5,264 nt of DNA from a virus (Duplodnaviria > Heunggongvirae > Uroviricota > Caudoviricetes). The DNA lies in IMG/VR virus record IMGVR_UViG_2703718816_000004, one strand, 5' to 3'. Numbering within the stretch: position 1 is the first letter of the stretch; each line of letters opens with the position of its first letter. Positions 1 to 5,264 of the stretch are shown here, in pieces. Below the pieces are notes generated by a model. The model saw nothing but the letters and a program-made list of their open reading frames with translations. It did no database searches and had not been told where the DNA came from. The position numbers and the translations under genes were made by a program.

Positions 1-355
1 CACCCGCCATCGCATACGCGCTGAACCATTCATTCACGCGCACAGACGGCCCCGCCATCACGCTGAACCAGCGGTTACGAATGGAATCTTCATGCCAGCG
101 GGTATCGCTGTAACGGGTCAGCTGGCGATTCTTGTCTCCTGCATAGCTGAATGACGTCACCAGCCCCAGCGTGTCCGTAAATTCATAGCGGTATTTCACG
201 TTGAATCCGGTTAAATCATCACTGCCGGACATATCAGAATGAGTATGAAGATACCCGGCACTCAGTGTGGAGGGATGTTCTGCTGCACCTGCGGGCGCAC
301 CCGCAGCAACCAGCCAGACGACTGCAGACAAAATAACAGCACATAATTTACGCAT
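1..355 (-). CDS. lom: Lom/Ail-family outer membrane protein, 5' partial (N-terminal about 118 codons; gene continues beyond window start)
   Basis: Hand translation of the minus strand from ATG at 355..353 gives MRKLCAVILSAVVWLVAAGAPAGAAEHPSTLSAGYLHTHSDMSGSDDLTGFNVKYRYEFTDTLGLVTSFSYAGDKNRQLTRYSDTRWHEDSIRNRWFSVMAGPSVRVNEWFSAYAMAG, open to the window edge. It has a signal-peptide-like N-terminus and closely matches my recollection of lambda Lom. SD GAGAGG lies about 6 nt upstream (plus 361..366 reverse complement). It is absent from the ORF track only because no stop codon falls inside the window. Position immediately downstream of J matches lambda gene order. Confidence 0.85.
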   Translation of the reverse strand, partial: MRKLCAVILSAVVWLVAAGAPAGAAEHPSTLSAGYLHTHSDMSGSDDLTGFNVKYRYEFTDTLGLVTSFSYAGDKNRQLTRYSDTRWHEDSIRNRWFSVMAGPSVRVNEWFSAYAMAG

Positions 356-376
356 AATTACCTCTCGCTTTTCTGC

Positions 377-404
377 AATAAAAAAGGCACCATTTCTGGT
401 GCCC
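377..404 (-). terminator. Intrinsic (rho-independent) terminator-like hairpin between J and lom
   Basis: On the minus strand: GGGCACC-agaaat-GGUGCC followed by UUUUUUAUU. The 6-7 bp GC-rich stem is plus 386..391 pairing with 398..403; the U-tract corresponds to the plus-strand A-run 377..385. It lies 19 nt after the J stop codon. Confidence 0.6.
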
Positions 405-422
405 TTATATGGGTTATAAAAT

Positions 423-3400
423 TCAGCTGATACTGATGCCTGCGGTGGCTTTCTTCATCACCACAACCAGCAAATCGCTGATACTTGCTGTGGGATACCA
501 GTTATTCACCAGCCATGCTGACACCGAAAACTCCAGTGTCATGTGACCGTGACCGGCAGGCATATCAATAACGCCACTGTAAATCAGCGTATTATCCAGC
601 GCGGTACGGTTATAAATTTCAGCACCGTTTTTCCGCACTATCAGACGGCATGAGGAGTAAATATCAGTATGCTCTCTCTCATGCTTAGCGCCACTGAATG
701 CCACCGCCGGAATAACAATCTGCCGGTCAAACGGCTGATCGTCATAAACCCTGACGGTAATGGTCCCTGATGGCCACCGCTCCGGTGCCCGGGAGTCCCG
801 CGGGAAAGCCTTACCCACTGTTTTGACAATATCGCCTTCAATCTGGTTGGCTGACAGTTTCCCCTTAATCTGACAGTTCTCATTAATCGTGACGTTGTTG
901 AGCGTCCCTGAGTTCGCATTCACACTGCCACTGATATCCGCATTTTTAGCGGTCAGCTTTCCGTCCGGTGTCAGGGAAAATGCCGGAGGATTACCGCCGC
1001 TGGTAATGGTGGGGGCCGTCAGGCGTTTCAGGAACACGTCGTTCATGAATATCTGGTTGCCCTGCGCCACAAACATCGGCGTTTCATTCCCGTTTGCCGG
1101 GTCAATAAACGCGATACGGTTAGCGGCAACCAGAAACTGGCTCAGTTTACCGTCCTCCGTGTCCTCCATGCTGAGGCCAAGCCCGGCAACATAATGCTTA
1201 CCGTCTTCGGTCTGCTCAATTCTGACGCCCCACATGGCATTCCATTTATCGTTAGCGTCTTTCCACTCTTTCGAAAACTCATCCAGTCTGCTGGCGTTAT
1301 CTTCCGTCAGTTCAGCGTTTTCCAGCAGCTCTTTACCGAGATGTGTTTTATTAATCAGCCCTTTGTAAAAATTCAGGTAGCCTTCGGCATCATCGCTGGC
1401 CCGGCCGACGGCCTCCACAAATGCCGATTTGCCCACCAGGTTGACGCTGCGGATATAAAAATAATAATCATGGCCCGGCCTGATATTACTGGCGGCTGTC
1501 CAGTACAGCGCCGTGCCAAGATAGCGGGCGGAGGTTTCAACCTGCCTGATATCCGCAATCTGCTGTTCCGAAAACCAGAATTCAAACTGCACCGTCGGGT
1601 CATATACAGCCAGTTTCGGGACCGCCGTTATCTGAAAATACCCCGGTATCAGTTCAATGGTGGCGGGCGCTGCCGGGGCGTCAATCCGGAACGTGGTGGT
1701 GGCAGGTTCGCCCTGCTGGCCATAGCTGTTAATCGCCCTGACCGTCAGGGTGTATTCCCCGGGCGGCAGACCACTGAAACGGTGCGCCGTGTCTGCGGTG
1801 ATGGCGGTGGTCACCAGGCGGCTGTCATCCCCCCTTCCGCTGGTCAGACGCAGACTGAAGCGCACACCTTTCACCACCCGCGGCGTGTCCCATTTCGCCT
1901 GCGCCAGATACTGGCCGTCTGAGGCACTCACCTCCACCGCGAGGTGCTGCACTGCCGGTGGAATAACGCTGTTCAGGGTGCCGGACAGCGGCTCAAAGCT
2001 GGCCCCGTTATCCACGATGGCTTCTTTTTCCGGTACGTGCTGCACTGCCGTGATGGCAAAGGTGCCATCCGTGTTTTCCCGGATGGCGACACAGCGGAAC
2101 AGGCGACGTCGAAGACCGGGAATTTTCAGTCCCCACACACCGTATGTCGCCACGCCATCAGGCAGGGCACTGACCTGTATCCGGGCAGGGGCCGGTTGTG
2201 CCGTGATGTCCACACTCACCGGCTTACCGCTGCCGTTAATCAGGTTCACCGTCGAAGTACCTGTCTCCGGCAGTGTCACCTCACGGTCCAGCGTCAGTGT
2301 GCGGCTGGCGGCATCAATGGACAGGACACGTCCGCCGGTCAGGGTCCCGGCGTAGTCGTTATCACAGATTTCAATGATGTCTCCGGGCGTGTGCCGCAGC
2401 CCCTGTGACCCGAGCGTGAAATCCACCGTCTGCGTTTCCAGCAGTCCGGTCTTTATCACCCACAGTCCGGCACGGTGGGCCTGACCGCGGCTGGTACAGC
2501 CGAACGCGTCCATCTTCAGCAGGTTGCGTCCGTAGCGCAGTATGGCTTCCGGGTCTTCCACCAGTTCCGTGGAGGTCTGCCAGCCGTTCTGCGGGTCGGT
2601 GTAATTCACCTCCACCGCCGTGTGCCGGTCCTTCAGGGCACTGAAGCTGTAGCGGAACCCCACGCCGTTATCATCCACCACCACATCGCTGTTGGTGTAC
2701 GGCCACACCACATCCGACGGGCGGTCCTGAACGAACGTCAGCGTCTGGCCGTTCCATACCGGCATACAGCGCATCGCCGAGCAGAAATCGCTGAGCACAT
2801 CCCACGCCTTACGCTGCTGTGACAGGTACGCATTAAACGTCATCCGCGGCTCTGTCCCTCCGAAGCCGTCCGGAACACGCTGGTCACAGTACTGCCCGAT
2901 GGCATACAGCGCCCATTTGTCCACGTCCGCGGCCCCCAGACGTTTTCCCATCCCGTAGCGCGGGTGGGTCAGCATGTCCCACAGACACCAGGCCGGATTG
3001 TTGCTGTATGCCGGTTTCAGACTGCCGTCCCAGATACCGCTGTAAGTGCGTTTTTCCGGGTCGTAGTTTGACGGCACCTGGATGATGCGACCGCGGATAT
3101 GGTAGTTCACCGTCATCTGCTGCCCACCAAACTGCTCCGCATCCACCTGCAGTCCCACAATGGCCGTGTTCGGGTAGCACTGTTTCACATCGATGATTTC
3201 GGTGTATGACGACCACAGCGTTCTGTTCTGCAGCTGGTCCGTGGTGCTGTCCGCCGTCTCCCGGACCATCCGGATGTTAAAGGGACGAGGAGGCAGATTA
3301 TCCAGAATCACCGACGCCAGAAACTGCGAGGTGGTCTTGCCGTGAATGGTGACATCCTTTTCCGTCACCCAGTTACCGTTACGCTGTAACTGAATCAGCA

Positions 3401-3809
3401 GCCGGACAGAAGCCGGATTACGGTCACCCTGTGAAGTTGTCTGCACCAGTGACTGCACCCCGAAGGTGACCCGCAGGCGGTCAATGTTCGCGGACGTAAT
3501 GGTGCGCGTCACCGGCTTTGCCTTCGTTACCTCCACGCCCAGTGCAGTTTCAGCCCCGGAGGACTCAAAGCCTTCCGGTGGTGTCTGCTCCTGCTCCCCG
3601 GCTCGCCAGACCGCGGTCACACCGTGTATCACGGGATTACCGTCCGTGTCCGTCAGCGGGGTTTTGTTCACCAGGATACTCTGCAGTCCCTTCACCGGGC
3701 CTTCCACCGGTCCCTCTCCAATCGCATCAATCACGCTCATCATCTGCGTGGATTTGAGATTATCCTTTGCCTCAACCGGCGTGTGCCCCTTGCCGCCACC
3801 TTTGCCCAT
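423..3809 (-). CDS. J: Tail tip host-specificity protein J (central tail fibre), about 1128 aa
   Basis: Long minus-strand ORF. Translation from ATG at 3809..3807 begins [22 protein letters not shown] and is collinear along its length with my recollection of lambda gpJ. SD-like AAGGGTGAG sits 7 nt upstream of this ATG (plus 3815..3823 reverse complement). The ORF-track start at 3851 is an in-frame TTG extension that would run through the upstream hairpin, so the ATG at 3809 is preferred. Stop TGA at 425..423. Confidence 0.93.
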
Positions 3810-3840
3810 TGTCTCACCCTTTACTGTGATAACTGTTACG

Positions 3841-3874
3841 CACAAAAACAACAGGCATCCCGGAGGATGCCTGT
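3841..3874 (-). terminator. Terminator-like hairpin immediately upstream of J (perfect 10-bp stem, 4-nt loop, U-rich tail on minus strand)
   Basis: Plus 3851..3860 ACAGGCATCC pairs perfectly with 3865..3874 GGATGCCTGT (loop CGGA). On the minus strand the hairpin is followed by UGUUUUUGUG (plus 3841..3850). It sits about 30 nt upstream of the J start codon on the same strand as J. Confidence 0.5.
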
Positions 3875-3891
3875 ATCATGACTGAATAAAA

Positions 3892-3916
3892 ATTCTGAAT
3901 TTCTTCACATTCTGAA
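3892..3916. repeat. Short direct repeats ATTCTGAA (x2) and CTGAA (x3) in the AT-rich I-J spacer
   Basis: ATTCTGAA at 3892..3899 and 3909..3916; CTGAA also at 3881..3885. They are flanked by an A8 run (3915..3922). Possible protein-binding or UP-element-like sequence; function unknown. Confidence 0.3.
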
Positions 3917-3927
3917 AAAAAAGACTG

Positions 3928-3956
3928 TTGCGCTGATAAATACGCTGCGTTACTTT
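3928..3956 (+). promoter_or_regulatory. Candidate sigma70-like promoter on plus strand (TTGCGC - 17 bp - TACTTT) in I-J spacer
   Basis: -35-like TTGCGC 3928..3933, 17-bp spacer, -10-like TACTTT 3951..3956 (T1, A2, T6 present), preceded by an A-tract at 3915..3922 resembling an UP element. It would initiate near 3963 and run into the plus-strand terminator at 4004..4045. Weak match; speculative. Confidence 0.2.
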
Positions 3957-4003
3957 TTAGTGCCTGAAAAATAACTCCATAACGTTAATCTTCATCGTTC
4001 TCT

Positions 4004-4045
4004 CCCGCAGCTCCGCGATCACTGCGGGATTTTTTTATTCTTTTT
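4004..4045 (+). terminator. Intrinsic terminator-like hairpin oriented for plus-strand transcripts, abutting the I stop codon
   Basis: Plus 4004..4010 CCCGCAG pairs with 4022..4028 CTGCGGG (11-nt loop), followed directly by ATTTTTTTATTCTTTTT (4029..4045). The T-tract is on the plus strand only; on the minus strand the hairpin is preceded by an A-tract and followed by non-U-rich sequence. Confidence 0.55.
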
Positions 4046-4724
4046 ACCCCTGCCGCCCGATAACCACGACCTTTCCGCCCCCGCCTTCATCACGGGTACT
4101 GATGTCCTGGGATATACGGCGGGAGCCAACCAGCATTTCCCCGTAAGGCACCGGCATCGGGTTCCCCTGGGCAATCATGTTATCCAGCGAGGAAAAGTAC
4201 GTGTTCTGTTTACCGTTATCCGTACTTTTGTACTCCGGCGTCTTTGCCTTCGGGGCCAGCATCTGGGCCACACCACCCAGTATCATGCTGGCCCCCAGTG
4301 AAAACAGCATCGTGGTGGCAGAAAAACCGCCGGCACTCAGGGCTGTACCCCATAACGCCATCGAGGCACCGGCAGTGAAGAAAGAGCCCACGATGGCTGC
4401 CGCCCCCAGCACAATCTGCAGTCCACCCTTTCCGGCCCCGGCCAGTCGCGGCACAATGTGGATGACCGTTCCCTCACCCAGCTGTTCGTGAAGACGGGCG
4501 TACACCGCCTCCGGTGCCGTGTCATAACCGGCAATACGTATCTGGTACCAGCCTTCGTTCATCTGACGGCGGAATCCGGGCACCTGTAACGACAGCGCCC
4601 GGATGGCTTCCGCTGCCGTGTTCACATACAGGCTGAGGCGGCGACCAAATCGTTGTAAATCCCCGTGAAGGCAGATGCGTGCCAGTGGCGGTGACGCCAG
4701 ACGGAATGCGTTCGTCGTTGCCAT
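4044..4724 (-). CDS. I: Tail tip assembly protein I (N-terminal ubiquitin-like domain, diglycine, Gly/Ala-rich hydrophobic C-terminal half), 226 aa
   Basis: Minus-strand ORF beginning MATTNAFRLASPPLARICLHGDLQRFGRRL, closely matching my recollection of lambda gpI. SD-like GGGAGAGG is upstream of the ATG at 4724..4722. Stop TAA at 4046..4044. Position between K and J matches lambda. Confidence 0.9.
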   Translation of the reverse strand: MATTNAFRLASPPLARICLHGDLQRFGRRLSLYVNTAAEAIRALSLQVPGFRRQMNEGWYQIRIAGYDTAPEAVYARLHEQLGEGTVIHIVPRLAGAGKGGLQIVLGAAAIVGSFFTAGASMALWGTALSAGGFSATTMLFSLGASMILGGVAQMLAPKAKTPEYKSTDNGKQNTYFSSLDNMIAQGNPMPVPYGEMLVGSRRISQDISTRDEGGGGKVVVIGRQG

Positions 4725-5264
4725 TTTTCAGAATACCTCTCCCGTTTACTCAGTTGCTCAGGTATATGATGAAGCAGTTCACCGTTGCCGCAGTAAATGG
4801 CAGCATGGTTGGGTACCGATGCGCCAAAGCAGCACAGCAGGATATCGCCTGCCTGTGCCGAGGACAGGGGCACCCGGTAAAAACCAGTGGCCTCCATATT
4901 GTCCAGATACAGGTTCTGGCCATTGCGCCACCACTCATCCTCGCGGTGAAAATCCGGCATCTCAATCCCCGCCAGATGGTATGCATCCCTGAACAGCGTG
5001 TAACAGTCCGTCACCCCGTGTTCAAAACGACGCCCGGTCAGGTGCGGCACACAGCGGAATTTATGAATGTCCCCCCGGCAGACCAGCCACCAGGGCAGGG
5101 CACTTTTTATCTGCAGCCGCCGGTCGGCCTCGCTCAGCCAGGGCAGGCCACCGGGATGGCTGTGGACCAGTGCCACAATCTCCCCCTGCATCTCTGCCCG
5201 CAGCCAGTCTTCCGGGGCAATACGAAAATACGCCTCCGGCTCTGCAGAGATATTCACGCACGGC
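4622..5264 (-). CDS. K: Tail tip assembly protein K (JAB/MPN metallopeptidase-like + NlpC/P60-like domains); start uncertain or 5' partial
   Basis: Minus-strand ORF open to the window edge. It contains the JAMM-type motif HSHPGGLPWLSEAD (HxHx7Sx2D, about 5164..5123) and an NlpC/P60-like Cys (GVTDCYTL, about 5005..5003) with downstream His residues (VPNHAAIY, LLHH). Stop TGA at 4624..4622. Candidate starts inside the window are GTG 5257 and ATG 5191; the frame remains open upstream to 5264, so the true start may lie outside the window. Confidence 0.88.
   Translation of the reverse strand, partial: PCVNISAEPEAYFRIAPEDWLRAEMQGEIVALVHSHPGGLPWLSEADRRLQIKSALPWWLVCRGDIHKFRCVPHLTGRRFEHGVTDCYTLFRDAYHLAGIEMPDFHREDEWWRNGQNLYLDNMEATGFYRVPLSSAQAGDILLCCFGASVPNHAAIYCGNGELLHHIPEQLSKRERYSEKWQRRTHSVWRHRHWHASAFTGIYNDLVAASACM

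Follow-up and report, generated by a model that had tools for sequence, protein, structure and literature searches.

Which receptor does the tail tip of a lambdoid prophage recognize when its C-terminal domain differs strongly from that of lambda? The question is raised by gene J of IMG/VR virus record IMGVR_UViG_2703718816_000004, a 5,264-nucleotide stretch of Caudoviricetes DNA that is referred to, at its full length, as the window. J encodes a homologue of gpJ, the tail tip attachment protein or central tail fiber, which in lambda has a receptor-binding domain that binds LamB. An earlier note, made from the sequence of the window alone, proposed that roughly the last 150 residues of J are more diverged from lambda gpJ than the remainder, and that this reflects either another receptor or another allele of the same one. 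The comparisons described here place the divergent C terminus in the class of receptor-binding domains found in prophage VT1-Sakai (Sakai) and in the engineered chimera gpJ-1A2 (1A2), set in a J gene that is a natural mosaic. This tip probably binds OmpC.

J is a full-length gpJ homologue with a predicted role as the trimeric tail tip of the virion. The reading frame is intact, with 1128 amino acids and no internal stop, in line with the ~1130 codons of a lambda-type gpJ. Six Pfam domains (FNIII-A_GpJ, Phage-tail_3, Ig_J, Ig_J_second, Phage_Tail_Tip, and Ig_GpJ_C), each with an E value of 1e-33 to 1e-42 and all above the curated cutoffs, occur in the correct order. Lambda gpJ (8iyk, 8xck, and 8xcj) is of the same length class and has the same six-domain architecture, K-I-J-lom synteny, and Ig-like fold. 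In contrast, its domain binds LamB, and its hub and FNIII parts are 63 to 79% identical to those of the window.

Global alignment of J with lambda gpJ (NC_001416 / NP_040600) gave 73.6% identity over the full length. Residues 1 to 973 were 78.2% identical (761/973) versus 44.5% (69/155) for residues 974 to 1128 (Fisher P = 1.1e-16), which bears out the proposed C-terminal divergence. The C-terminal 155 residues form the lowest-scoring segment of that length in the protein, the next lowest being residues 533 to 687 at 61%, and a permutation test on 155-residue segments yielded none as low in 10,000. With sliding 50-residue segments, identity was 0.96 to 1.00 over lambda residues 876 to 975 and then fell to 0.56, 0.48, 0.46, 0.40, and 0.32, a sharp C-terminal drop that excludes uniform identity along the gene. 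At the DNA level the break lies at about nucleotides 2900 to 2912 of J, that is, at ~898 to 910 of the window, and mismatches are dense from there; the span of 423 to 900 given in the earlier note was thus accurate. The first amino acid difference past the near-identical stretch is N971 (S974 in lambda). The linker is 62% identical over residues 974 to 997, and the receptor-binding domain (residues 998 to 1128) is 41% identical. The same note described the first ~975 residues as highly similar to lambda. This holds as an average and for residues 876 to 973, which are near-identical, but similarity is not uniform, with only 63% identity over residues 501 to 725. This second trough, in the FNIII/Ig region (window ~1635..2309), has a nonsynonymous divergence (dN) of 0.29, and 50-residue segments around residues 500 to 575 and 600 to 725 are 48 to 62% identical to lambda.

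Nei-Gojobori estimates of dN and of synonymous divergence (dS) from lambda differ greatly along the gene. In the receptor-binding domain dN is 0.60 and dS is 1.65. Residues 1 to 500 have a dN of 0.14 and a dS of 0.91, and the hub and FNIII parts have dS values of 0.9 to 1.3. Residues 876 to 973, just before the break, have a dN of 0.014 and a dS of only 0.20. The step is sharp because this preceding stretch is 97% identical to lambda in amino acid sequence, and the change in dS across it indicates that segments of different ancestry meet here. A lambda/434-type prism of recent common origin adjoins an anciently diverged receptor-binding cassette. Accelerated drift or fast evolution of a lambda-type domain was rejected as an explanation because dS in the domain is saturated and the allele is 96 to 99% identical in nucleotide sequence to Sakai-type prophages. 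The divergent C terminus would instead be a different receptor-binding cassette, recombined in at the conserved junction between prism and domain.

Sliding 150-nucleotide identity against lambda, 434, phage 21, Sakai, and Escherichia coli SHP24 was used to examine the mosaic. Residues ~790 to 970 have 0.84 to 0.98 nucleotide identity to lambda and 434 versus 0.61 to 0.83 to Sakai and phage 21, with 434 alone at 84 to 95%. Residues 998 to 1128 are 96 to 99% identical in nucleotide sequence to Sakai and ~60% identical to lambda. Lambda gpJ has been divided into hub domains, a pair of FNIII domains, an alpha-helical shaft that includes residues 809 to 861, a beta-sheet prism, and, at the C terminus, an Ig-like receptor-binding domain (Ge & Wang 2024). 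On that scheme the lambda-like tract of J corresponds to shaft and prism. J is therefore a natural three-part mosaic with a Sakai-type hub and FNIII region (Table 1), a lambda/434-type shaft and prism, and a Sakai-type receptor-binding domain. The shaft/prism segment of Sakai and phage 21 is a different version, roughly 28 codons longer. When lambda, 434, Sakai, and the window are considered together, all tested pairings of prism type with receptor-binding-domain type occur. Such exchange is already known. Among 1207 J homologues, variation is concentrated in residues 960 to 1132, the "specificity region" (Maddamsetti et al. 2018, PMC6646904), and this region was concluded to be an evolutionary module whose recombination is independent of the other parts of J (PMC6646904). 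The mosaic in the window is one instance of this published pattern.

The Ig_GpJ_C domain of J, which Pfam describes as a C-terminal receptor binding domain, is identical to that of Sakai (prophage Sp15 of enterohemorrhagic E. coli [EHEC]) at 129 of 131 positions, and the two differences within the domain are R1045, which is K in Sakai and 1A2, and S1126, which is T. When the last 157 residues were compared with 50,697 phage records in a translated search, 53 records matched at 95% identity or more; 52 phage records are 96 to 97% identical. The group at or above 95% includes VT1-Sakai, many phages converting to Shiga toxin (Stx) types Stx1a and Stx2a, PhiR5_1, and JLK-2012. Phage 21 falls in a class at 62 to 66% identity, and lambda (45%) and 434 (43%) are more distant. 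The J gene of Sakai is frameshifted and annotated as two truncated coding sequences, unlike the intact J of the window and of SHP24. The linker also differs from that of Sakai and 1A2 at four residues (QIK/I in the window, RVL/L in Sakai and 1A2), so that residues 964 to 994 are identical at 27 of 31 positions.

Other known allele classes of the domain were rejected. The LamB-binding allele of lambda shares 41% of the domain and 13 of 43 predicted loop residues. The class of A8 and phage 21 shares the fold alone, with 57 to 61% identity and with both class indels (a deletion in loop L1 and an insertion in loop L2) missing from the window. A8 gpJ (9wca and 9wcb), a solved OmpC-binding tip, is the best structural match and is identical over residues 964 to 994 (31/31), but its domain is only ~57% identical (78/136), its L2 being 6 residues longer and its L1 4 residues shorter. 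Phage 21 J is nearly identical in L4 and in the C-terminal strand, but it has the L1 and L2 indels, another type of shaft and prism, and LamB as its native receptor (PMC11336670). The OmpC-using J proteins of 434 and of the phi330/WGPS6 type were rejected at 42 to 44% domain identity. Because of this low identity, and because the 434 loops match those of the window at only 8 of 43 positions, the Sakai/1A2 domain and the 434/phi330/WGPS6-type domain are independent OmpC-binding allele classes.

An AlphaFold2 model of residues 964 to 1128, built from a 25-sequence alignment, is a beta-sandwich with a mean predicted local distance difference test (pLDDT) score of 83. The protein database search with the 157-residue tip gave only fragments of at most 275 residues, and several frameshifted ones were removed before modeling. 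The top Foldseek matches in the PDB were A8 gpJ in its closed form (9wca) and in its open form bound to OmpC G17 of EDL933 (9wcb), with 65% identity and a template modeling (TM) score of 0.83. Lambda gpJ, closed (8xck) and LamB bound (8xcj), also matched, with 47% identity and a TM score of 0.84. Comparison of the model with the receptor-bound domains 9wcb (OmpC) and 8xcj (LamB) gave TM scores of 0.77 to 0.84.

By the strand order of the model, four loops, L1 to L4 (Table 1), share the same end of the sandwich, and they are the most variable segments among 33 homologues; loops at the opposite end are nearly invariant. L1 to L4 correspond to residues 1012 (L1), 1048 to 1049 (L2), 1077 to 1078 (L3), and 1107 (L4) of lambda J, which are hot spots of natural indels and host-range changes (PMC6646904). 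L1 to L4 are thus predicted to be the loops that contact the receptor. Over the 43 residues of these predicted loops, identity to the window is 42/43 for Sakai, 20/43 for both phage 21 and A8, 13/43 for lambda, and 8/43 for 434. The framework of the domain is 99% identical to Sakai and 47% identical to lambda. The sole loop difference from Sakai and 1A2 is R1045 in place of K in L2 (window 675..677).

Receptor use by this class is known from chimeras in which C termini of natural prophage gpJ proteins were fused to lambda gpJ (Brödel et al., Nature 2024, PMC11338833). The 1A2 chimera delivers DNA into ΔlamB ΔompC MG1655 when the cells are complemented with EDL933 OmpC but not when they are complemented with K-12 OmpC, and it reaches only ~5% of wild-type, LamB-positive MG1655 cells (PMC11338833). 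Of 23 natural OmpC variants in the source data, 20 gave delivery above 75%, and G1, G2, and G40 did not (PMC11338833). A follow-up preprint describes gpJ-1A2 as recognizing EDL933 OmpC rather than LamB (bioRxiv 10.1101/2025.02.28.640725). The 1A2 gene was available as machine-read text of a supplementary PDF, with indel errors and a recoded 3' part, and was reconstructed by translation in three frames. At every readable site that separates the window from Sakai (GNVNA, RVL, GDL, HEKEH, and ITIS), 1A2 has the Sakai residues. That so similar a chimera works through OmpC in a ΔlamB background makes it quite likely that the tip of J binds OmpC, not LamB. Of the two options left by the earlier note, a different receptor is favored by the near-identity to Sakai and the OmpC use of 1A2. 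The trimeric domain would insert its four distal loops into OmpC, in most natural E. coli variants but not that of K-12, instead of into LamB, and OmpC binding would trigger opening of the tail, as in lambda.

Several points weigh against this assignment. R1045 replaces K in a predicted contact loop, and four linker residues differ from Sakai and 1A2. Some 1A2 positions are uncertain (for example, YSG versus YTG), making an exact residue count against 1A2 impossible. The contact loops were assigned from a model of the monomer and from the variability of the sequence, and the window is a 5.3-kb contig from a prophage that may not be functional. The 1A2 data come from a chimera on a lambda backbone rather than from a natural phage (PMC11338833), and in the literature we found no natural phage that has the Sakai/1A2 allele and a measured receptor, the receptor data being from chimeras only. 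Furthermore, the phage 21 domain is 81% identical (109/135) to that of A8, yet one uses LamB and the other OmpC, and phage 21 gains OmpC use by one mutation (PMC11336670). This contrast limits the inference of receptors by homology in the gpJ family. It is conceivable that the domain of the window is, as in phage 21, a diverged allele that still binds LamB. The phage 21 tip is 61 to 65% identical and represents the next-nearest allele class (65% over the last 157 residues), its framework is 73% and its L4 75% identical to the window, and LamB and OmpC are both trimeric porins that are engaged alike. However, with just 20 of 43 loop residues shared with phage 21, and with the much closer 1A2/Sakai domain being OmpC dependent, active in ΔlamB cells, and barely able to enter LamB-positive MG1655, LamB binding is very unlikely.

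A lesser departure from 1A2 would be that OmpC is bound but that R1045 in L2, or the linker differences, shift the range of accepted OmpC variants, for example with K-12 OmpC gained or some variants lost. Residue 1045, part of one of the predicted contact loops, is naturally polymorphic (HERE, HEKE, HERN, HEQD, and HERK), and single substitutions alter receptor use in lambda (PMC6646904) and in phage 21 (PMC11336670). Nevertheless, the change from R to K is conservative and the remaining 42 loop residues are identical, so such a shift is unlikely. The mosaic and its sharp step might also be attributed to an assembly chimera of collapsed J copies, given that the window is a whole draft contig and that J-like copies are repeated in E. 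coli genomes (median, 2; maximum, 15). This explanation was rejected and is extremely improbable, because an unrelated assembly, GCA_020147785.1, has the identical 1128-residue protein on a contig of 98.8 kb, and the complete genome of SHP24 shows the same mosaic and aligns with the full window as a single piece at 98%. Thus, an OmpC-binding tip of the Sakai/1A2 class on a naturally mosaic J remains the preferred reading.

The window J resembles what was engineered in 1A2, in which lambda was joined to the domain after lambda G964, within ~10 residues of the natural breakpoint. It is tentatively suggested that J is a natural counterpart of 1A2, with a lambda/434-type shaft and prism and a Sakai-type OmpC-binding domain joined within ~10 residues of the site chosen by the engineers, that the conserved end of the prism may be a preferred site of cassette exchange, and that the OmpC range of the R1045 variant may differ from that of 1A2. 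A8 accepts K-12 OmpC, whereas 1A2 does not.

The window is the K-I-J-lom tail tip module of a lambdoid E. coli prophage (Table 1). All its genes are on the minus strand, in the K-I-J-lom order shared with lambda, 434, Sakai, and SHP24. It makes up the whole of contig LOIQ01000026.1 (5264 bp) in the draft assembly GCA_001607765.1, and with the copy in GCA_020147785.1 the identical J protein is present in two NCBI assemblies in total. The latter copy lies in a prophage with HK97-like head genes that adjoins aspS and ruvABC. The best complete-genome match is that of SHP24, at 98% identity over the full window. The contig stops within K, which is 744 nucleotides long in related records, and within lom. 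Multiple lambdoid prophages probably caused the assembly to break at these two points; E. coli genomes have a median of 2 and a maximum of 15 places that match the window.

Table 1. Positions of the genes, domains, and other features of the 5,264-nucleotide window, with supporting evidence
Feature	Position	Strand	Evidence or remark
lom, 5' part (Ail/Lom outer-membrane protein)	1..355	-	Cut by contig end; Ail_Lom Pfam match
Terminator-like hairpin plus T-run	383..406	-	Consensus scan; 17 nt past J stop codon
J, tail tip attachment protein / central tail fiber, intact	423..3809	-	ATG, 1128 aa plus stop
Receptor-binding domain, Ig-like (J 998-1128), VT1-Sakai / gpJ-1A2 class	426..818	-	PF12421 Ig_GpJ_C 1-135/135, E 2e-37
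Predicted bottom loop L4 (J 1101-1112)	474..509	-	3/12 identical to lambda, 12/12 to Sakai
Predicted bottom loop L3 (J 1067-1074, NRTALDNT)	588..611	-	1/8 identical to lambda, 8/8 to Sakai
Predicted bottom loop L2 (J 1040-1048, GAKHEREHT)	666..692	-	2/9 identical to lambda, 8/9 to Sakai
Predicted bottom loop L1 (J 1001-1014)	768..809	-	7/14 identical to lambda, 14/14 to Sakai
Linker between prism and receptor-binding domain (J ~971-997)	819..899	-	Identity to lambda lost here
Helical shaft plus beta-prism, lambda/434 type (J ~790-970)	900..1440, approximate	-	Sliding 150-nt identity
Hub plus FNIII/Ig domains, VT1-Sakai-like (J 1-~790)	1441..3809	-	86-99% nt identity to Sakai vs 62-89% to lambda
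I-J spacer, AT-rich, 234 nt	3810..4043	-	Terminator-like hairpin at 3851..3874
I, tail tip assembly protein	4044..4724	-	PF06805 Lambda_tail_I, E 2.5e-16
K, NlpC/P60 plus JAB peptidase	4622..5264	-	PF00877 + PF14464; 5' end cut by contig end

In phages 434 and 21, a terminator is annotated downstream of J at the position equivalent to the hairpin at 383..406. The 422-nucleotide stretch with lom is 85% identical to Sakai and 88% identical to 434, and it aligns with lambda over a 51-nucleotide piece only. The G+C content is 0.46 to 0.51 in positions 301..900, which comprise the receptor-binding domain and the J-lom junction, versus 0.59 to 0.66 in central J (1500..3000).

The I-J spacer has a G+C content of ~43% versus ~60% in the flanking genes, and the corresponding gap in lambda is 60 nucleotides. 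Its hairpin is a strong terminator-like structure with a T-run, immediately ahead of the ribosome-binding site of J, and a second terminator-like site, at 4012..4028, was scored on the opposite (plus) strand. Conservation of the spacer is ~80% across 138 records of long-tailed phages of the Stx/EHEC type. It is annotated as a feature of its own in none of the 12 listed Stx/EHEC-type records, and it had no Rfam match; an Rfam scan of the whole window with E values up to 1 likewise gave no match. In several close relatives, transposase genes of the IS66 family are annotated within the region that matches the window, and they may sit in the I-J spacer.

The tip allele is very common. When the 471-nucleotide tip was compared by megablast with 5426 complete E. 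coli genomes, ~3350 of them had a match over 80% or more of the tip, and it is present at 95% identity or more in 1386 records. Fragments of the tip in the protein database are also filed under the names E. albertii, E. fergusonii, and Shigella. The equivalent lambda segment matches ~98 of the 5426 genomes, all at 99% or more, and the five of these that are listed are laboratory strains, including DE3 lysogens. The Sakai/1A2 allele is thus more common than any other J tip among sequenced E. coli, and its presence in the window is ordinary cassette variation of a kind already described. The tip of lambda itself is a rare allele in nature, and divergence from lambda is therefore to be expected of a prophage J. 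The assignment adds nothing new, because the allele is common, its receptor has been determined with chimeras, and the modularity of J has been in the literature since 2018.

The range of cells open to a lambdoid phage, or to a DNA delivery particle based on lambda, is set by its receptor-binding module. Assignment of J to the OmpC/1A2/Sakai class predicts entry through OmpC, a porin that E. coli reliably expresses in the gut, whereas LamB is not reliably expressed there.

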